From contig BCGN01000004.1 of the NCBI GenBank assembly GCA_001599295.1, forward strand, positions 1,241,676 to 1,305,675: 64,000 nucleotides of DNA, read 5' to 3'. Source of the stretch: Sporopachydermia quercuum. Lineage: Eukaryota. Positions 1 to 61,089 of the stretch are shown one piece after another. The first letter of the stretch is position 1. Each line of letters starts with the position of its first letter. The notes beneath the pieces were generated by a model. It made no database searches. It was not told the DNA's origin and saw only the letters and a list, made by a program, of their open reading frames with translations. The translations under genes were made by a program, and so were the position numbers.

Positions 1-133
1 CTCATTCTTCTCTTTCTAATTAATAAGAAAAGGAAGGAGAAGAAGGAAAAAGAGTAAGAATTCTAATACAATTCTTCAATTTTTCTTAAAATTCATTTTA
101 TTTTACTGAATGATGTATGATCAGACAGCAACA
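1..133. repeat. Palindromic tRNA-upstream element, copy 1 (truncated by window edge; end of left arm, centre and full right arm present)
   Basis: Aligns without gaps to 60006-60138 with 4 mismatches and 1 N over 133 bp; ends ...ACAGCAACA 9 bp before tRNA-Ile. Confidence 0.9.
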
Positions 134-142
134 TTAACAAGC

Positions 143-216
143 GGTCTCTTGGCCCAGTTGGTTAAGGCACCGTGCTAATAACGCGGGGATCAGCGGTTCG
201 ATCCCGCTAGAGACCA
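143..216 (+). tRNA. tRNA-Ile(AAT)
   Basis: Acceptor stem GGTCTCT/AGAGACC, anticodon loop CT-AAT-AA, T-loop GGTTCGATCC, downstream oligo-T terminator. Confidence 0.97.
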
Positions 217-9777: not shown

Positions 9778-10269
9778 ATGAATTTGATTGATACAGTTCT
9801 CAGACTAACTATTTTTTTTCTCACCTTTACTGGTGTGAAGTCAGATACAGTGGCACCTGAAGAATTGTCTTTCGTTGGTGAGCTGTACTCCGATATCCAA
9901 TCAAGAGGATTGGATGAGTATATTTCATACATGTCAGCTCACACAATAGCTACACCTCTTGACCTGGTTTTATATCTGAACTCTGTGTTAAATGAATATG
10001 ATTCTGATGTCACAGAGATAACTGAATATTTGGCTACAGCTACTGATGTTCCTATTGATCGAATATACTCTTTTGGTGGAAATTTTCCATGGTTGGAAGC
10101 ACAAATTACTTCTATATCAAATGAGGTAGCCAGAGAGACATCACCATCTTCTGCTGAGAATACAAACTCTGCTGTTAGATTTAGCGATTCAGGGGACAAT
10201 CTGATGGTATATTTGCTTCCTGTCGTGATTATATTGACTTTAACTCTTAACTCGGTTGCTTTGTGGTGA
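9778..10269 (+). CDS. Small GPI-type cell-wall protein, probably Srp1/Tip1 (Pau/Tir/Afb1-like) family
   Basis: N-terminal signal peptide, 'ELYSDIQSRGLDEYISY...FPW' pattern, hydrophobic C-terminal tail. Confidence 0.65.
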   Translation: MNLIDTVLRLTIFFLTFTGVKSDTVAPEELSFVGELYSDIQSRGLDEYISYMSAHTIATPLDLVLYLNSVLNEYDSDVTEITEYLATATDVPIDRIYSFGGNFPWLEAQITSISNEVARETSPSSAENTNSAVRFSDSGDNLMVYLLPVVIILTLTLNSVALW

Positions 10270-10331: not shown

Positions 10332-11360
10332 CTAATGATCAAATGATTTTATTACCGATTCAAGCTTTTCCACATAGCTCATGAATTGTTCATCCTCCAG
10401 CTTTGAGATAATCCACTGTTTTTCTGCTTCAGAGTCCAGCGGATTGTCTATTGGTACTTCAGAACTGTTTTTTCCTGCTCCTGTAGCCCATAATTTCTTT
10501 GGTAAAGAGATTGAAGTATATGAATCTGATTTTTTTCTTTTATTCGAANTTTCCGTAGGAACCGCCTTATCAGCTTGATCACCGCTAGTGTCAGTTACGA
10601 ATGAATTAGATATCACAAACTGATTGCCAACAAGTCCTAAGTTTTGATTCATATGGAGTGTACTCTGGGAATTGATACTCTGCGGTTGAGAGATAGAATT
10701 AGTATTCGCTTTAGCCATTTGAACGTTTGCTAGTTTCGACATGAAACCAAATTGGGAGAAAGTAGAAACGGCCAGATCAAATTCATCTCTTTCTTTAAAT
10801 TTGAACTGACATCGATTCATCTATATTGAACCTGTTAGAAATTTACCAAAAAGACTGTATATACAGGTACAGCAAAAAAAGTTTTTCTATACCATTATTT
10901 CTCCATCTTTTTCAATCAGGTATTTAAGTCCAATAGAAGGCCATCCAAAGATAACTAAAACAGGTAGACTGAACTGATCACTTCTCTCCGAAAACTGCTT
11001 AAATGCCTTCTGAATTTCAATCAAGCACTACAACTGATGTTAATAACAATATTCATTATGTGAATATCGACACAGGCGTCAAGACAGTGTTCAAACCAAT
11101 TTTCTATCTTGATAGTTGATCTGCAAATTAGGCGTGGAATTTGAGTTTGAATAAGCATTGTTCTCTGTATCATCTTGCTTGCTATCTACAAAAATCAGTC
11201 TTAGATTGTTCTTGTACGGGCAATGAATCCATTTATTTTGTTTCCCTTTAGCTTTCTCTTCATTTTTAGCAGTATCCTCAGAATTGAATAGCAATCCGTG
11301 TGGCGACGGAACCATATCTCTTAGATATGAGTACTTTTCAATCTTTACCTCTACATTCAT
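10332..11360 (-). CDS. REC114: Meiotic double-strand-break protein Rec114; exons 11360-11097, 11027-10893, 10820-10332 (~295 aa)
   Basis: N-terminal 'IEKYSY...PHG...KWIH', middle 'PSIGLKY...RCQFKF...EFDLAV' and C-terminal 'IISKLEDEQFMSYVEKLESVI' resemble Rec114 signature motifs; two phase-0 introns with branch-like TATTAAC/TTCTAAC and TAG acceptors join two ORF-track fragments. Confidence 0.8.
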
Positions 11361-31108: not shown

Positions 31109-32179
31109 TTATGATATTCTCGCTCGTTGTAATGCTGTTGTTACATCATACTTATTGAACAAAGGCATATAATTCTCCATTCTCAGATTCCCTAGTAAGT
31201 CGAATAAAAGTAAACGCTCATTGAATAAATGTAAGCCTCCAAATGATTCTATCATTGATTGAATCTCAATCGGATTCAACTCGGATTTATGCTCCCCTGT
31301 CATACACAACCGTTTATTATTCCCCAGTACTAAGTCTATAGGTATATCTTTGGAATATATCTCATGGATATTATTGATCATTGAATTGTCATATTTTCCA
31401 AGTATCGATTTCAATGACTTAGAGTCTTGAGCAATGAAGCTCTGTAATACTTGTTCAAGAGCCGCTCTATAAATTTTATGGGAGTATGGGCTATTACTTG
31501 AACTAATTGAAGATATAGTATTGGTTGACTTGATTATGTTGCTTCTTAAGGAGTCTTCAGTTAAAACTGTAGGTTTTACGTATAAATCCATGGAAACAAA
31601 ATCTCTCATGGCTTCTTGTTTCTGTTGTGATAATTCTGGTTTGGCTTTGAATACTGCTGACAGAGCATTGTTCAATTCATTTATAAGTAAACTATCAGAA
31701 GTTGCATGCATTTGTTTGTCTGGCTCACTCTTAACATGATTTGACATATCTCGGCTGTCGGATATAGATTTTCTACTATTTGTGCAGGACATTCTTGCTT
31801 TAAGATCAATCATAGACAACATATTAGAATTCTGAGACGCTTCAATCAGTTTTGAGATTTTATCTCCTTCTTGTTGTATATGAGTAGACAATACATGATC
31901 ATCGATCGTCTTAGTATGATTCAAACAAGTATCATGATATTCTTTGAATTGGGTGCTGAGATATCTGATAAATTCATCAAGAAATAGTGATCTTTTAGTG
32001 TGGTATCTGGCAATTGATTCTTTCCTCAGTCTATAAGTTTTCTGCGCATTTCTTACTTGAGCTCTTCTTTTCTCGCTGGGGCCATCATCAGTAGAGTTCA
32101 GTCTTGGGCGGCCCGGTTTTTGTTTGGGTTTCTCACCAATGTTTGGATAACTAGTTTCCATGTTGAATAGAGAAGGCAT
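31109..32179 (-). CDS. bZIP-like transcription factor, paralog A (~356 aa from first ATG)
   Basis: AT-hook-like PGRPR followed by basic region KRRAQVRNAQKTYRLRKE; first in-frame ATG at 32179 (the ORF track extends from a non-ATG start). Confidence 0.72.
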   Translation of the reverse strand: MPSLFNMETSYPNIGEKPKQKPGRPRLNSTDDGPSEKRRAQVRNAQKTYRLRKESIARYHTKRSLFLDEFIRYLSTQFKEYHDTCLNHTKTIDDHVLSTHIQQEGDKISKLIEASQNSNMLSMIDLKARMSCTNSRKSISDSRDMSNHVKSEPDKQMHATSDSLLINELNNALSAVFKAKPELSQQKQEAMRDFVSMDLYVKPTVLTEDSLRSNIIKSTNTISSISSSNSPYSHKIYRAALEQVLQSFIAQDSKSLKSILGKYDNSMINNIHEIYSKDIPIDLVLGNNKRLCMTGEHKSELNPIEIQSMIESFGGLHLFNERLLLFDLLGNLRMENYMPLFNKYDVTTALQRARIS

Positions 32180-34366: not shown

Positions 34367-36703
34367 TCAGAGCTTAATTTTAACAGAATCCAAAAACGAA
34401 CTAACCCATTGAGTATTAACTCTAGGTAAACCTCCAACGACTCTCATATTAGCAATTAAAGCAGAAATCAAGGCATCAACATTAAACAACTCTAGTCCTC
34501 CTAAATCGTTGATCCGCTTCTCCAGATTGATCAGACTTGTCCAACCAGGAAATTCATTATCATCTTCAATTTTGCCCAACCATTGAGATCCTGCGACTGA
34601 GATTGGTAACTTTAAAACGTTCTGTATCTTTGGAATGAAAAAATCCGCGTCAAACTTCGGGGGGAATACTATATCTAATTGTTTTGTATTTCCTTGAATA
34701 AACAGTTCCAAGGTTGCTTTAGCTGCCAAACGGAATACTCTCTCTGCAAAAGACCATTGACAAAATACTGGCGTAGGAGGTAAATCAGATAATAACTCCA
34801 TCGTAGTACAAACTAATTCTGAGTGAGAACAAGTATTAGGCTCAACAATAGAAGTAATACATTTCACAACAGGAACTCCAACCAAATACTTTGGTGTATT
34901 GGGTGCTTCATTCTTTATTGTTTCAATAGAATAAGCTGCTGTAGAGTTGGTAGCAAAACCTGATGTGCATGAAGGATGGAAATTAAAGGTTCTGAAAGGC
35001 NAGTTTGTCAGTTGGTTCCATATTGTAGGATGAATATGAATACCTCCATCTGATCTAGATAAAGACTTCGGATTTGGAAAAGTGTTGAAGTAATGGTTGT
35101 CAGGTCCTGCAGATGACGCTGGTGAAATTAGTTGTTCATATTGTTGATGTTTGTTTTCATTTGGCAAATAGGATTGATTGTCTTCACTATTACCATCAAT
35201 GCCACTACTTTTCCCACTAGCTAGATCTTGAGGAATAGAGCATGATGCGATAGCTCTTGCGTGAGCACTAACTTTTTCAGTCATTTCATCACTATAAGAA
35301 GTGTCGGTTAATTTCTCAAGTACACGCCCTTGATCTTGAACGTTATTTCTTATGGGATGATTACTTTGGTTGTTAATAGTAATGAAATTAGTAGTATTAT
35401 TGCTATGGCCTTCAGTAGTAGAGTCTGGTGGTGAGCTCCAAGAAGGTATTGGTTGTCCCCCTGTTTGAAAATGTGATTGATGTTGATTTGCCATTGGGTC
35501 TTGAGAATGAACCATAGTCATTGGAGTGCTATTGACTCTTGAAAATACCGACAAGTCCACCTGTTGCGCTAACTGATTGATATTATCACTTGAAGAACTA
35601 TACCACGTATGACTTAGTGTTGATAGAACATTGTTGTCAATAGGAGAGTCAGGGGTATAACTAGCACTTCGCACCAAGCCATTTTGAATGCTGTTGTTGA
35701 TAGCAGAGCTCATATGTCTTGAGGTTGGAGTAGGGGTCCACCAATAGCCACCTTTACCGTCTTCCTCAGACGATGAAATAGTGCCTGTTGCGTTATTATC
35801 GTTACTTTGCTGTTGATGCTGGCTGATTGCCTGTAAATGGAGATGATGCTGCAACATNTGTGATTGAAGTAGTGATGATTGTTCACGATGTTGAAATTGT
35901 GCTTGATGTGGTTGTTGATGCAAATTAGTTAGCGATTGATTTTGAGACTGATGGTAANTAGTGCTACCACGAGGACATGCATAACTAGCAATACCAACGT
36001 TATTTCTATCGCTGGCATTACCATTAGCCACACCTTCCATTCGGATTGATTCGGAAGGCTGTAAATTCGTCTCTATCTCATTTGATAACGTTGTATCATT
36101 CGTAGGAAGTTTGCCATCGATTTCTTTAGCCTCTAATGCATATTGAAGCTCAAATTCATTCAAACTTTGGTAAGGTCCAACTTGTAGAAAATCTTGACTT
36201 CTTTTGATATGCAAACCGATCTTGTTTCCTAACCTACTGAATAATTGCATTACTTCAGTATTATTCTCCTTTACTGCTATTCCAACGCTTGTTTCATAGA
36301 ATTCAGAGAATAGGGTTTCGATATCATCGATTGTTGCCATGAGATATCTGGTCCTTTTGCGATAATACTCGGTTGCTGATTCTTTCTTCATACGATACGT
36401 TCTTTGAGCATTTCTTATCTGTTCTCGTCGTTTCTCGGAATGCTTATTATCTGACTCGTTCAAGCGAGGCCTGCCATATTTCCTTCGTTTGGATGATGAA
36501 ACTGTCTCACTCAAACTATCTCTACCGCCATTATTTGAATTCGATTTTCTCAAAATTGAATCCACGCTTGGCGATTCAGTTCTATTTGTTGATGTTACTG
36601 ATTTCTTAATTCCTATTTCATTTTCAACCTCTTGTGATGAACGCGCTGAGTCACTGAACGAAGATGGCGTATCCGATGGCGGCGCCATTTCGAATTTTAA
36701 CAT
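34367..36703 (-). CDS. bZIP-like transcription factor, paralog B (778 aa, Q/N/S-rich middle)
   Basis: YGRPR plus KRREQIRNAQRTYRMKKE basic region; C-terminal block similar to paralog A (GGLELFN/GGLHLFN, ANMR/GNLR). Confidence 0.78.
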   Translation of the reverse strand: MLKFEMAPPSDTPSSFSDSARSSQEVENEIGIKKSVTSTNRTESPSVDSILRKSNSNNGGRDSLSETVSSSKRRKYGRPRLNESDNKHSEKRREQIRNAQRTYRMKKESATEYYRKRTRYLMATIDDIETLFSEFYETSVGIAVKENNTEVMQLFSRLGNKIGLHIKRSQDFLQVGPYQSLNEFELQYALEAKEIDGKLPTNDTTLSNEIETNLQPSESIRMEGVANGNASDRNNVGIASYACPRGSTXYHQSQNQSLTNLHQQPHQAQFQHREQSSLLQSXMLQHHLHLQAISQHQQQSNDNNATGTISSSEEDGKGGYWWTPTPTSRHMSSAINNSIQNGLVRSASYTPDSPIDNNVLSTLSHTWYSSSSDNINQLAQQVDLSVFSRVNSTPMTMVHSQDPMANQHQSHFQTGGQPIPSWSSPPDSTTEGHSNNTTNFITINNQSNHPIRNNVQDQGRVLEKLTDTSYSDEMTEKVSAHARAIASCSIPQDLASGKSSGIDGNSEDNQSYLPNENKHQQYEQLISPASSAGPDNHYFNTFPNPKSLSRSDGGIHIHPTIWNQLTNXPFRTFNFHPSCTSGFATNSTAAYSIETIKNEAPNTPKYLVGVPVVKCITSIVEPNTCSHSELVCTTMELLSDLPPTPVFCQWSFAERVFRLAAKATLELFIQGNTKQLDIVFPPKFDADFFIPKIQNVLKLPISVAGSQWLGKIEDDNEFPGWTSLINLEKRINDLGGLELFNVDALISALIANMRVVGGLPRVNTQWVSSFLDSVKIKL

Positions 36704-43462: not shown

Positions 43463-43685
43463 ACTTAGTGCTTAACTTCTAAACACTCACATTGTATCAA
43501 TAACGTGTATAATTTTCAATCTGTAATGATATTTTTCATAATATTCGACTATCAGAGTCAATGTATTACTGATTGTAGTTCCATTTAATCATTTCAAATA
43601 CAATGATAAATTAGAAAAACTAAAAAGTTACAGAGATATTATGAATATAGATATGGAAACTAATCTGTTTGTTCCCACACAACAA

Positions 43686-43757
43686 GCCGTTGTAGTATAG
43701 TGGTTAGTACACTTCGTTGTGGCCGAAGAAACCTCAGTTCGATTCTGGGCAACGGCA
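43686..43757 (+). tRNA. tRNA-His(GTG)
   Basis: GCCGTTG/CAACGGC acceptor stem, CTTCG-TT-GTG-GC-CGAAG anticodon arm, GTTCGATTC T-loop, oligo-T downstream. Confidence 0.96.
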
Positions 43758-53562: not shown

Positions 53563-56500
53563 ATGTCTTCAATTAGTTTCCCAAAAGAAGAGGAACAAGT
53601 GTTGGCACTATGGGAGGAATTGAATGCATTCCAACGTCAATTGGAATTGACCAAGGATATGCCTAGATTCACATTCTATGATGGTCCTCCATTCGCTACA
53701 GGAACTCCTCATTACGGTCATATTTTGGCCTCCACTATTAAGGATATTGTTCCTAGATATGCTACAATGACTGGTCATTACGTTGAGAGAAGATTTGGTT
53801 GGGATACTCATGGATTGCCTGTCGAACACGAAATTGACAAGAAATTGGGTATCAGTGGTAAGGAAGATGTGATGGCAATGGGTATTGACAAGTATAATGA
53901 AGAATGTAGATCTATCGTTATGAGATACGCCGCAGAATGGAGAACAACTATTGGCCGACTTGGTCGTTGGATTGATTTCGATAATGATTATAAAACTTTG
54001 TATCCAACTTTTATGGAATCTGTATGGTGGGTGTTCAAGCAATTGTTTGTCAAGGACATGGTCTATAGAGGATATCGTGTTATGCCTTACTCAACTGGTT
54101 GTACTACTCCTTTAAGCAACTTTGAAGCTCAGCAAAATTACAAGTTATCACTGGATCCTGCTATCACTGTGGCCTTCCCACTTGTTAATGATCCCAAGAC
54201 TAAGCTACTTGCTTGGACTACCACTCCTTGGACACTTCCAAGTAATATAGCATTATGCGTTCATCCTGATTTCGAGTATATCAAGATCTTAGACGAGAAG
54301 ACTGGTGATAATTACATTTTATTGGAAAAACTTTTGACAACCATTTATAAGAATCCAAAGAAGGAAAAATTTCAAATTGTGGAAAGAATCAAAGGTAAGG
54401 ATATGGATGGTTGGAAATACGTCCCACTATTTGATTATTTTGTCGACGAATTCAAAGAACATGGTTTCAGGGTTTATGCTGACACTTTTGTTGATGATGA
54501 AAGTGGTACCGGTATTGTTCATCAAGCTCCTGCTTTTGGTGAAATCGATTGGAATGCAGCAACAGAAGCAGGTGTTATCAATGATAGAAGACCTCCTCCT
54601 AATCCCGTTGATGATAACGGTAAATTCACTTCTGAAGTAACAGATTACGCTGGAATTTATGTCAAGGATGCTGACAAAAAGATTATCAAAGATATCAAAG
54701 AAAAGGGAAGATTAGTTCAACAAGCTCAAATCAGCCATAGTTACCCTTTCTGTTGGAGATCTGATACCCCTTTATTGTACAGAGCTGTTCCCGCTTGGTT
54801 TGTCAGAGTCAAAGAGATTATTCCTGATATGTTGAGTGCTGTCGATGACACAAGATGGGTTCCCTCTAACATCAAAGAAAAGAGATTTGCTAATTGGATT
54901 TCTCAAGCTAGAGATTGGAACATCAGTAGAAACAGATATTGGGGTACTCCGTTACCTTTATGGGTTAGCGATGATTTAAAAGAAGTTGTTTGTATTGGAT
55001 CTATTCAAGAATTAGAAGAATTATCTGGTGTCAAGAACATCACTGATATACATAGAGATAGTATTGATGGTATCACCATTCCTTCTAAACAAGGGAAAGG
55101 TGTCTTAAAAAGAGTAGAAGAAGTATTTGATTGTTGGTTTGAATCTGGTAGTATGCCTTATGCTTCTCAGCACTATCCTTTCGAGAATAAGGAAGTTTTC
55201 GAAAAATCTTTTCCAGCTAACTTCATTTCTGAAGGTTTAGATCAAACTAGAGGTTGGTTTTACACTTTAACGGTTTTGGGCACTCATTTATTCAAGAAGT
55301 CTCCTTTCCAGAATTGCATAGTTAGTGGTATTGTTCTCGCTTCTGATGGTAAGAAGATGTCAAAGAGATTAAAGAATTATCCTGATCCAGGTATTGTAGT
55401 GAACAAGTATGGTGCTGATGCTCTCAGACTTTATCTCATCAATTCACCCGTTTTAAGAGCAGAAACTTTGAAATTCAAAGAAGAAGGCGTTAAAGAAGTT
55501 GTATCAAAGGTATTACTTCCATGGTGGAATTCATACATGTTTTTGGAGGGTCAAATTGCTTTGATTAAAAAACTAGAAAACATTGATTTCAAGTATGATG
55601 AAAGCTTAAGAAGCCAAAATGTAATGGATAAATGGATTCTCGCCAGCTTGCAAACTCTAGTTGCCTTTATTCACTCTGAAATGAATGAATATAGACTTTA
55701 TACTGTTGTTCCAAGATTATTGAGCTTGATTGATGATCTAACGAACTGGTACATCAGATTTAACAGAAAGAGATTAAAGTGCGAAAACGGTTCTGAGGAT
55801 GCTATCAAGGCTTTGAATACTTTAACTGAAGCTTTGTTTACTATGGTCAGGGCTATGGCTCCATTTACACCATTCCTAGCAGAGACGATTTATCAACGAT
55901 TACGTCCTTTATTTGCGGAAGGATCTATTCAAGGTACCGACTTGTCATCAGTTCATTTCTTACCTTATCCTGATGCGAAAGCTGATCTTTACGATGATAA
56001 GATTGAAACTGCTGTCAAGCGAATGCAATCTGTTATTGAGTTAGGAAGAGCTATTAGAGAAAAGAAGACCATTGGTTTGAAGACACCTTTGAAGAGTCTA
56101 GTTATTCTTCACCCAGATGCTGATTACTTGAAGGATATCGAAGAACTTAAAAATTATGTTATTGAAGAATTAAATATTCGTGATTTGATCCTTACCAGTG
56201 ATGAGAAGAAGTATGGTGTTATATACAAAGCTAACGCCGACTGGCCTGTACTAGGCAAGAAACTTAAGAAGGATATAGTTAAGGTTAAGAATGCCTTACC
56301 AAATCTTTCATCTGAAGAAGTTGAGGAATTCATGAAAACGGGAAAGATTGTTGTCAATGGAATTGAATTAGTTGAAGGTGATTTAACTGTTACAAGAGCT
56401 CTTTCTGAATCAGAAACCGAATCAGGTCATGAAGTCAACACTGATAATGATGTATTGATCATTCTTGATACCAAGATTTATGATGAGATGAAGACAGAAA

Positions 56501-56841
56501 GTTTTGCAAGAGAAATCATCAACAGAGTTCAAAAGTTAAGAAAGAAGGTTGGTCTTCAAGCTACAGATGATGTACATGTTCAATACTCAGTTGTTCAAGA
56601 AGATAAGAATGTTGGATCTGTTGATAATATCGTTGAAGAACACGAGGGCTTATTGGTAAAGACTTTCCGCAGGAAACTGGGGCAAATTGGTGAAAAGCTT
56701 ACAGAAGCTCACGAATCTTTGTGGAAGACTGTTGCTCATGAAAAAGCTCAAATCAATGATGCCATCATCGAATTTAAATTGTTAAAGATTGCTTCTCACA
56801 AGAGTGATGAAGAAACTAAACCTTCTTCTGAAGACGAATAA
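53563..56841 (+). CDS. ILS1: Cytosolic isoleucyl-tRNA synthetase
   Basis: DGPPFATGTPHYGH, WTTTPWTLPSN, DWNISRNRYWG and KMSKRLKNY class I motifs. Confidence 0.98.
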   Translation: MSSISFPKEEEQVLALWEELNAFQRQLELTKDMPRFTFYDGPPFATGTPHYGHILASTIKDIVPRYATMTGHYVERRFGWDTHGLPVEHEIDKKLGISGKEDVMAMGIDKYNEECRSIVMRYAAEWRTTIGRLGRWIDFDNDYKTLYPTFMESVWWVFKQLFVKDMVYRGYRVMPYSTGCTTPLSNFEAQQNYKLSLDPAITVAFPLVNDPKTKLLAWTTTPWTLPSNIALCVHPDFEYIKILDEKTGDNYILLEKLLTTIYKNPKKEKFQIVERIKGKDMDGWKYVPLFDYFVDEFKEHGFRVYADTFVDDESGTGIVHQAPAFGEIDWNAATEAGVINDRRPPPNPVDDNGKFTSEVTDYAGIYVKDADKKIIKDIKEKGRLVQQAQISHSYPFCWRSDTPLLYRAVPAWFVRVKEIIPDMLSAVDDTRWVPSNIKEKRFANWISQARDWNISRNRYWGTPLPLWVSDDLKEVVCIGSIQELEELSGVKNITDIHRDSIDGITIPSKQGKGVLKRVEEVFDCWFESGSMPYASQHYPFENKEVFEKSFPANFISEGLDQTRGWFYTLTVLGTHLFKKSPFQNCIVSGIVLASDGKKMSKRLKNYPDPGIVVNKYGADALRLYLINSPVLRAETLKFKEEGVKEVVSKVLLPWWNSYMFLEGQIALIKKLENIDFKYDESLRSQNVMDKWILASLQTLVAFIHSEMNEYRLYTVVPRLLSLIDDLTNWYIRFNRKRLKCENGSEDAIKALNTLTEALFTMVRAMAPFTPFLAETIYQRLRPLFAEGSIQGTDLSSVHFLPYPDAKADLYDDKIETAVKRMQSVIELGRAIREKKTIGLKTPLKSLVILHPDADYLKDIEELKNYVIEELNIRDLILTSDEKKYGVIYKANADWPVLGKKLKKDIVKVKNALPNLSSEEVEEFMKTGKIVVNGIELVEGDLTVTRALSESETESGHEVNTDNDVLIILDTKIYDEMKTESFAREIINRVQKLRKKVGLQATDDVHVQYSVVQEDKNVGSVDNIVEEHEGLLVKTFRRKLGQIGEKLTEAHESLWKTVAHEKAQINDAIIEFKLLKIASHKSDEETKPSSEDE

Positions 56842-58989: not shown

Positions 58990-59512
58990 ATGGGTAGATT
59001 TCAATTTAAAGACGAGATTCCATTTGGTATGTTCCTTTTCCTCTTCTGTTAAATTGTATCAACGATTACGATTGAATGAATACTAACACGAAAATGGTAC
59101 TAGAGAAGAGAAAAGCAGAAGCTCAAACGATTTTGAGTAGACACGAGAATCGCATACCAGTAAGTTTTGTGTACTTTCAAGACATTTTTTCATTCAGTGA
59201 TTCAAATACTAATAATAATGATTTGTTAAGGTTATCTGTGAACGTGTTGAGAATTCCGATATTCCAGAAATTGATAAGAAGAAGTACCTCGTACCAGGAG
59301 ATTTAACTATTGGTCAATTTGTTTATGTTATCAGAAAAAGGATCAATATCTCATCTGAGAAAGCTTTATTTATATTTATCGATGATCTACTGCCTCCAAC
59401 TGCTGCCTTAATGAGTTCCATTTACAAAGAGCATAAAGATGAGGATGGCTTTCTATACGTCTTTTATGCAGGGGAGAATACATTTGGCAAGGTTTGTGCA
59501 GAGATTAGTTAA
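58990..59512 (+). CDS. ATG8: Autophagy ubiquitin-like protein Atg8; exons 58990-59026, 59104-59159, 59231-59512 (124 aa)
   Basis: Spliced protein [19 protein letters not shown]...RIPVICE...DKKKYLVP...[11 protein letters not shown]...DEDGFLY...GENTFG plus tail KVCAEIS. Confidence 0.96.
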
Positions 59513-59826
59513 TCTGTGAGATCAATCTTTTCATGGCTTTTTTCTATTTACTTTGTCACGTAACAACATTTGGTTCGTGAGAGTTACACTTTTTCTTTTC
59601 TCTTTATGTCATATTTAAATCGGGTCTGAACTTCTATGTGTTATCAGATCAATATATAGTATCGTTTGGCTCAACATATATTGATTCTGTTCTATAAGGT
59701 TTTTCCTTTGAGATACTGCGAGTAAACTATACAAAAAAAATATAATACGAAAGAACTCTGATGATGAGATAAATTAATAATATAGCAATAAAAATAATGG
59801 AAGAGTAGGCAAACAANAAAATGATT

Positions 59827-59900
59827 TGATTCGACCCAGGATCGAACTGGGGACGTTCTGCGTGTTAAGCAGATGCCATGACCAACTAGACCATCGAACC
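59827..59900 (-). tRNA. tRNA-Val(AAC)
   Basis: GGTTCGA/TCGAATC acceptor stem, TCTGC-TT-AAC-AC-GCAGA anticodon arm, GTTCGATCC T-loop. Confidence 0.96.
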
Positions 59901-59911
59901 AACTTTGAAGA

Positions 59912-60138
59912 TGTTACTGTCTGGTCATATATCATTCAGTAAAATAAAATGAAGTTTAAGAAAAATTGAAGAATTGTATCAGAATTCTTACTCTTTTTCC
60001 TTCTTCTCATTCTTCTCTTTCTAATTAATAAGAAGAAGAAGGAGAAGAAGGAAAAAGAGTAAGAATTCTGATACAATTCTTCAATTTTTCTTAAAATTCA
60101 TTTTATTTTACTGAATGATGTATGATCAGACAGTNACA
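59912..60138. repeat. ~227-bp palindromic (foldback) element between divergent tRNA genes, copy 2 (complete)
   Basis: Arms 59912-60008 and 60042-60138 are reverse complements with 3 mismatches and 1 N over 97 bp; pairing continues toward an AT centre; TGT...ACA termini. Confidence 0.92.
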
Positions 60139-60158
60139 AATAGTAACAAATAGTTAAT

Positions 60159-60231
60159 GCCTTGATGGCCAAGTTGGTAAGGCGTAACACTAGTAATGTT
60201 AAGATCGTCGGTTCGACTCCGGCTCGAGGCA
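60159..60231 (+). tRNA. tRNA-Thr(AGT)
   Basis: GCCTTGA/TCGAGGC acceptor stem, TAACA-CT-AGT-AA-TGTTA anticodon arm, GTTCGACTC T-loop. Confidence 0.96.
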
Positions 60232-61089
60232 ATTTGTTTCCCCNCTTTTTTACTACTATTTATTTTTCTCGATCTGAATAGATGGTTGATGTTTGACCCT
60301 CAATCATTATTTGAGAATCGCCTGTCCTTATCTAGGCTATTCAATATTATTGTCGTATCGCCCCTCTGCTGCTACTTATGTTTCTTCTGGTGAGTGCAGA
60401 AGGTTATCTATTACCTGATACTTGAGGTATGGTCTCTTATCTCACGTGGTTTACTTACCTATCATTTGTCGTCAACGGTGATAAAGAAGTAGTTGGCGAA
60501 CAGAGCAAAAATAACAATATTATAACACAGTAATTTTTTAATTCTAGCAACTTTACAGATTTAATCAATAATACTTGGCCATTCATCTTTTTATACATAC
60601 TTTTGAGCTCATATTTATTGCTCAACCACGGTCTTCTTCTTTCCCAACTGTCATTCTGCTGGGTAAGCATTACTTGATGACGTACTCAGTTATAATAACT
60701 TAAACTTCAGTACAAAAAGGGAATCTTGTGAAGCAACAACTTATCAGTTTCATTGTGAGGTAAGCCTGTCTTTTCATACCTGTAAACAATTAGGAGGCAA
60801 TTGATTGGTATTGAACCATTGAACGTTTACAATATATATGTGCACCATTAAGTTGAGCATGAGAACAAGAAAGTGCTTCGCTCTATTTAACGGTATTTGT
60901 TAACGAAGCTTTGCATACNTACAAGTCNTAAGGGTACACCCTGATTTCTTATAATCTATATTCTCACTCAGAGGTTACTGATTCTTTGACAAGATAAGAG
61001 CGATATCCGTTCAAAAGTAATACAAAATATAGAAACAAATCATCTACTGTTTGGCAATTATTTTGATACAAGAAAAGAGCAAAAATAAG

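Follow-up and report, generated by a model that had tools for sequence, protein, structure and literature searches.

Several Ty3/gypsy elements of yeasts occupy the Pol III start position of tRNA genes (PMC5911963; PMC7175516). Insertions of the Ty3 type are located 0–20 bp upstream of the gene, near the transcription start site (PMC7175516; PMC6673722), and strand transfer by Ty3 takes place at most 1 nt from this site, which in S. cerevisiae is an A at about −13 within the sequence TCAACA (PMC6673722). In one review table, all tRNA-targeting elements listed are retrotransposons, either LTR or non-LTR (PMC5911963). The TGTNR termini of gypsy LTRs are shared by the Ginger transposons (Ginger1 and Ginger2/Tdd, with a gypsy-integrase-like transposase), which have inverted repeats of 40–270 bp and include non-autonomous copies (PMC2836005). 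According to this source, Ginger elements duplicate 4–5 bp of target sequence, either CCGG or AT-rich, have no reported association with tRNA genes, and are represented in fungi by a vestige in Malassezia only (PMC2836005). MITEs and foldback elements are small, non-coding, hairpin-forming and multi-copy, and use an enzyme provided in trans; they are rare in budding yeasts, where the first to be reported, in 2014, was mRover1 of Lachancea waltii (PMC4316626).

The locus described here lies in a window of 64,000 nt, by which we mean the whole stretch of DNA that was analyzed. It has a G+C content of 35% and carries ordinary, intron-poor housekeeping genes. A profile search matched 15 of 19 ORFs to ordinary cellular Pfam families, while the remaining four (162–778 aa; 31109–32179 (−), 34367–36703 (−), 9778–10269 (+), and 10332–10820 (−)) had no match at E ≤ 1e-5. 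The best named relatives of the encoded isoleucyl-tRNA synthetase (53563–56841, +) are 71–73% identical and come from budding yeasts of several families; the yeast thus belongs to a Saccharomycotina lineage that has no closely related annotated member in the database searched. A single N occurs at 31 window positions, once every few kb (e.g., 59817, 60135, and 60244), including one in the terminal hexamer of the element described below; these scattered letters may represent ambiguous or heterozygous bases of the source assembly.

ARAGORN predicted four tRNA genes in the window, three of which were confirmed by Rfam at gathering scores (Table 1). The fourth, tRNA-Val, was not reported by Rfam cmscan even when its stretch was searched separately; its cloverleaf is canonical when drawn by hand. 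The tRNA-Val and tRNA-Thr genes are divergent, and the palindrome that is the subject of this report lies between them.

Table 1 Features of the palindromic element and of the tRNA genes in the window (window coordinates).
Feature	Position	Strand	Evidence or remark
Second copy: centre and right arm, truncated by the window edge	1–133		BLAST and alignment
tRNA-Ile(AAT)	143–216	+	ARAGORN, Rfam
tRNA-His(GTG), control without element	43686–43757	+	ARAGORN, Rfam, BLAST
tRNA-Val(AAC)	59827–59900	−	ARAGORN (59826–59901), hand-checked cloverleaf, 74-nt multi-copy contigs (~4–5x depth)
Complete copy of the palindromic (foldback) element	59912–60138		Repeat search, self-BLAST, folding
Left arm	59912–60016		Variants at 59923, 59930, and 59954
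Imperfect palindrome centre	60017–60033		Identical centre in second copy
Right arm	60034–60138		Near the family majority sequence
10-bp tandem duplication (GTNACAAATA, GTAACAAATA)	60133–60152	+	Sequence
tRNA-Thr(AGT)	60159–60231	+	Rfam; ARAGORN (60158–60232)

The complete copy is a near-perfect palindrome of 227 bp, with arms of 105 nt each that are 95% complementary and separated by a 17-nt spacer. In a BLAST comparison of the element against the window, its self-reverse identity was 93% across 228 columns. Folded as single-stranded DNA, positions 59916–60134 form a single hairpin of −101.2 kcal/mol, compared with a mean of −20.7 kcal/mol for shuffled sequences (z = −26; 0 of 200 shuffles equally stable). 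The 227 bp leave no space for an ORF of ≥60 aa. In its form, the element is thus a short (under ~600 bp), non-coding sequence with terminal inverted repeats, as are MITEs and foldback elements. In contrast to MITEs such as mRover1 (PMC4316626), the inverted repeat here extends over almost the full length of the element, and its termini are integrase-type. Each arm has as its inner third (within 59985–60065) a tract of ~30 nt, polypyrimidine on one arm and the complementary polypurine on the other, and these tracts enclose the AT-rich imperfect centre (CTAATTAATAAG). Below threshold, many Rfam microRNA-precursor models matched 59954–60096 on both strands; we read them as the generic matches that any long hairpin would give.

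Both ends of the complete copy face a tRNA gene at close range. The spacer to the mature 5′ end of tRNA-Val is 11 nt (59901–59911) and that to tRNA-Thr is 20 nt (60139–60158). The latter includes part of a tandem duplication, perfect apart from one N, that is made up of the last 6 nt of the element and 4 nt of flank; with one 10-bp unit removed, the spacer is 10 nt. A second copy is located at the window start, where positions 1–128 are 97.7% identical to element positions 95–222 (BLAST); the homology continues to position 133, 9 nt before the start of tRNA-Ile. The window edge cuts this copy 18 nt left of its centre, placing its left arm and left neighbor outside the view. Since the centre is common to both window copies, the whole palindrome is the repeated unit. 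Thus, all three element ends visible in the window, at 9, 11, and 20 (10) nt from a tRNA 5′ end, fall within 0–20 bp upstream of the coding sequence, and three of the four tRNA genes carry the element. As tRNA genes plus 20 nt upstream make up ~0.1% of the window (by arithmetic), this arrangement is not due to chance.

These results agree largely with an earlier note on this DNA, which had described, from the letters of the sequence, a near-perfect inverted repeat with TGT...ACA ends filling the gap between tRNA-Val and tRNA-Thr. The repeat was recovered by repeat search, BLAST and folding, and the claimed spacings of 11 and 20 bp (10 without the duplication) were reproduced from the sequence and the tRNA calls. 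The note gave the arms as 97 bp, which the repeat search corrects to 105 nt. Its second copy, said to end 9 bp from an unrelated tRNA-Ile gene, is real. The homology between the two copies stops at the element end, and their flanks and tRNAs differ; a segmental duplication holding both copies was rejected on these grounds.

The element begins with TGTTAC and ends with GTNACA (TGTTA...TAACA). TGTTA is compatible with TGTNR, and the termini have the TG...CA form that characterizes Ty3/gypsy LTRs; together with the 105-nt arms, they also correspond to the TGTNR termini and 40–270 bp inverted repeats of Ginger elements. Five ends could be seen, four of which read TAACA and one CAACA. The terminal hexamer is GTAACA at −17 to −12 before tRNA-Val and GCAACA at −15 to −10 before tRNA-Ile. 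Before tRNA-Thr, the GTAACA at −16 to −11 is that of the second duplication unit; the hexamer that ends the element itself is found at −26 to −21. The element therefore ends at precisely the point where transcription is expected to start and, if the terminal five bases are its own and not those of the targets, brings a start-like motif with it. A Tc1/mariner-like alternative, in which the element would be bounded by CTGTCTG...CAGACAG with a TA duplication, was rejected because the further TGT/ACA is common to all five ends and CA replaces TA in one copy.

At three of the five ends (60133–60152; 128–139; contig loose end 59912), a second TAACA/TGTTAC is present 6–10 bp outside the terminal one, in the first case as part of the 10-bp tandem duplication. 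These extra motifs could be start-like motifs of the tRNA genes themselves, products of slippage, or traces of repeated insertion. We prefer the tRNA genes' own motifs or slippage over excision footprints, because the element-free tRNA-His also has a CAACAA (at −6 to −1). The sequence immediately preceding the tRNA-His gene, CACACAACAA (43676–43685), resembles the S. cerevisiae TCAACA.

The copy number was approached with contigs from three public runs of two studies (here X1, X2, and X3), compared over 59000–60918. X2 and X3 are from one sample, and the assembly may derive from one of the three runs. X1 had flank depths of 34.4 and 33, left-arm contigs at 607 (59917–59960) and 590 (59931–60012), and a summed depth of 1124 in the bin 59896–59959. 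The corresponding values for X2 were 101.7 for the flank, 2000, 495, and 1509 for left-arm contigs, and 3796 for the same bin, and X3 had a flank depth of 22.5 and a left-arm contig at 320. Across the three runs, individual arm contigs (44–117 nt) reached 14–18x the single-copy depth and the summed depth 33–37x; the sum is a rough proxy and not a copy number, as both arms collapse onto the same words. This suggests ~12–37 arms, i.e., ~6–19 palindromes, as a very rough estimate. An 82-nt arm contig stands at ~17x single-copy depth, so many arms are near-identical over that length, which points to a recent spread. The depth and the 97.7% identity between the window copies are those of a family with many homogeneous copies, as is typical of MITEs and foldback elements. 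Together with the differing flanks, the depth in all three runs establishes a repeated element, as the earlier note had proposed, and not a mere pair of copies within a larger duplication. Exact-pattern scans with two conserved arm parts returned 0 matches in metagenome and prokaryote contigs, collections that probably do not contain this yeast, so that this result carries no information on how widespread the element is.

The contigs also inform on sequence variation within the family. All of them read T at 59954 and 59980, where the left arm of the window has G and C, respectively; the family majority therefore resembles the copy at the window start. The variants in the outer half of the left arm (59923, 59930, and 59954) are missing from both the right arm and the second copy. 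Furthermore, the left-arm version recurs, with one difference in 42 nt, in a single-copy contig that comes from a different locus (X1 record 3). Such mixed arms fit different origins joined by recombination or gene conversion; given the few sites, simple mutation is possible.

Occupancy of tRNA genes by the element is patchy, the pattern expected of insertions and unlike that of an obligatory promoter. At the outer element end (59911/59912), contigs show two further flanks. One of them (X2, loose end 59911) reads, in reverse complement, as a 12-nt spacer followed by a tRNA-like acceptor and D-arm (by-eye reading of 30 letters), and the other has no resemblance to a tRNA. The tRNA association accordingly comprises three window ends and one contig flank. 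Conversely, three other upstream flanks of tRNA-Val (loose ends 59900, 59903, and 59905) are all free of the element. From these flanks and the ~4–5x depth of the tRNA-Val contigs, it follows that the tRNA-Val family has several members, at least three of which lack the element. BLAST and the upstream sequence likewise revealed no element copy upstream of tRNA-His, in line with the earlier note. Since it is missing from other members of the tRNA-Val family and from tRNA-His, the element is not an obligatory promoter.

These observations bear on the idea that the palindrome is a host upstream promoter module, i.e., a bidirectional TFIIIB platform that is not mobile and that duplication or gene conversion carried from one tRNA gene to another. 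Such a module would explain why the element end coincides with the expected start motif and supplies G(T/C)AACA, why the arm is AT-rich upstream, and why each end of the complete copy faces, and perhaps drives, a tRNA gene. Native yeast tRNA upstream regions similarly have TCAACA at about −13 and an AT-rich TFIIIB region (PMC6673722), comparable to the G(T/C)AACA at −17 to −10 and the AT-rich upstream sequence of the element. However, native upstream regions are not 95–98% identical over ≥100 nt between genes for different tRNAs, unlike the element copies, and this identity indicates recent spread instead of old constraint. Gene conversion would require flanking homology, which different tRNA species do not have in common, and neither the element-free tRNA-Val and tRNA-His genes nor the contig end with a non-tRNA-like flank are expected of a promoter module.

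The earlier note had offered the ATATAT at about −30 of tRNA-Val in support of a portable promoter. This box occurs in the left arm only; at the corresponding place, both the right arm and the second copy have GTATGA. The high-depth contig 59917–59960 differs from the left arm by three letters. Because the ATATAT is private to one arm, the promoter-module idea loses its main support, and we consider it quite unlikely. Of the two readings in the note, the mobile, Pol III-targeted one is strengthened by the repeat family, the end positions and the termini, and the portable promoter module is weakened by the private ATATAT and the element-free tRNA genes.

We also considered that the head-to-head layout, or the palindrome itself, might have been created by a short-read assembler that joined two tRNA-adjacent repeat arms via their shared sequence. 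The first letter of the window is 18 nt away, on the left side, from the second copy's centre, a position very unlikely for a random cut; this suggests that the contig underlying the window starts there and that the assembly broke inside the palindrome. The coincidence would be rare otherwise and speaks for assembly trouble at such sites. The same is true of two findings from the contigs, namely that none of them, in any of the three runs, spans the element (60019–60134 skipped as repeat) and that, at 59954 and 59980, every contig departs from the window letter. However, contigs drop rare variants, and the second arm was skipped as repeat. With several differences between them (95% complementarity), the arms do not resemble those of a fold-back artefact, the same centre occurs in both window copies, and high-depth contigs extend 12 nt into it (X2 record 13 and X3 record 20). 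Even a wrong join would still leave the arms beside tRNA starts. An assembly product is, in our view, very unlikely.

The nearest described elements are the LTRs that share the tRNA-proximal position: Ty3/sigma of S. cerevisiae, beta/Tca8 of Candida albicans, Tyl3, Ylt1 and Tyl6 of Yarrowia, and Tj1 of Schizosaccharomyces japonicus. According to the sources (PMC5911963; PMC7175516; PMC2836005; PMC6673722), they resemble our element in the Pol III start-site position, the TG...CA (TGTNR) ends and the patchy presence among tRNA genes. The element ends 9–12 nt from the mature tRNA, which is at the near end of the 0–20 bp range described for Ty3; the Ty3 duplication extends as far as the start site at about −13 (PMC6673722; PMC7175516). 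The palindrome could thus be a solo LTR or LTR remnant of a Pol III-targeting Ty3/gypsy retrotransposon, an ordinary member of the sigma, beta and Tyl class with an unusually palindromic sequence. Its TGTNR/TG...CA ends, a size in the range of LTRs and the start-site position match the yeast Ty3/gypsy elements in this respect (PMC5911963; PMC2836005). Unlike Ty3-type elements, the element is a palindrome over all of its 227 bp (95%), has no ORF, lacks a U3-R-U5 layout and shows no 5-bp duplication.

The flanks of the complete copy read AAGA/AATA (4 nt) and GAAGA/AATAG (5 nt) and provide no target-site duplication, which agrees with the earlier note and contrasts with the 4–6 bp duplication expected for a solo LTR. 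Recombination between copies could have erased such a duplication. In addition, the flanks shown by the contigs do not have the look of a primer-binding site or polypurine tract, and no gag/pol ORF is present in the window. We know of no palindromic LTR, and none is described in the open-access literature that we searched. Taken together, a solo LTR appears unlikely.

We favor the interpretation that the palindrome is a non-autonomous, multi-copy foldback (MITE-like) element that was inserted at Pol III start sites. We assign this reading a probability of about 0.5; its mobility is what we infer from the features above. Several points count against it, namely the missing target-site duplication at the one complete copy, the finding that one of the two other contig flanks is not tRNA-like, the use of summed contig depths that are not copy numbers, and the fact that the palindrome is not spanned by any contig. 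Moreover, we know of no mechanism by which an RNA intermediate of the LTR type would allow a perfect palindrome to be copied, and from budding yeasts there are, to our knowledge, next to no reports of Ginger-type transposons. No autonomous element, integrase or transposase gene was found in the window, and none of the 19 scanned ORFs matched a transposon or retroelement family. Under the foldback reading, the element would be mobilized in trans by the product of a gene at another place in the genome, either an integrase of the gypsy/Ty3 type or a transposase related to it. By docking on the Pol III initiation complex, this enzyme would insert the element at the transcription start site of a tRNA gene, thereby replacing the gene's whole upstream region. 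The terminal G(T/C)AACA may then substitute for the start motif, so that the gene would still be expressed.

The head-to-head tRNA pair calls for a second step, because insertion at a single start site leaves ordinary DNA next to the opposite end of the element. Insertion into an existing divergent tRNA pair was rejected, as the two genes would have been 21–31 bp apart and would have left no room for two upstream complexes. Recombination may have produced the pair instead. Palindromic copies are homologous in both orientations, and if one copy next to tRNA-Val and another next to tRNA-Thr crossed over, the intervening segment would be inverted. The predicted products are a tRNA-palindrome-tRNA arrangement that retains the two original spacers and lacks a matching duplication, and a reciprocal copy without tRNAs. 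The recombination model fits the missing duplication, the flank without tRNA resemblance and the three-site divergence of the left arm.

A bolder version of the foldback reading can be formulated, in which both ends of a foldback DNA element, being identical, would serve as substrates of a Ty3/gypsy integrase or a Ginger-like transposase, and each would be aimed at a Pol III start site. It would then be the first non-retrotransposon, non-autonomous element known to target tRNA genes, would replace their promoter and start, and, through two-ended targeting or recombination, would wire unrelated tRNA genes head to head and so reshape tRNA gene order in this lineage of yeasts. In its full extent, we regard this version as doubtful.

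Our search of the open-access literature turned up no account of palindromic repeats next to tRNA genes in yeasts, and a palindromic, non-coding element at a tRNA start site is probably new among tRNA-targeting elements. On the practical side, palindromes of this kind break short-read assemblies at tRNA loci and should be taken as a warning. If the foldback interpretation is true, start-site targeting could be exploited by a parasite of a parasite, and the element would be a natural case in which tRNA genes obtain their upstream promoter and start site from mobile DNA. Inversion between palindromes would, furthermore, provide a mechanism that shuffles and pairs tRNA genes.
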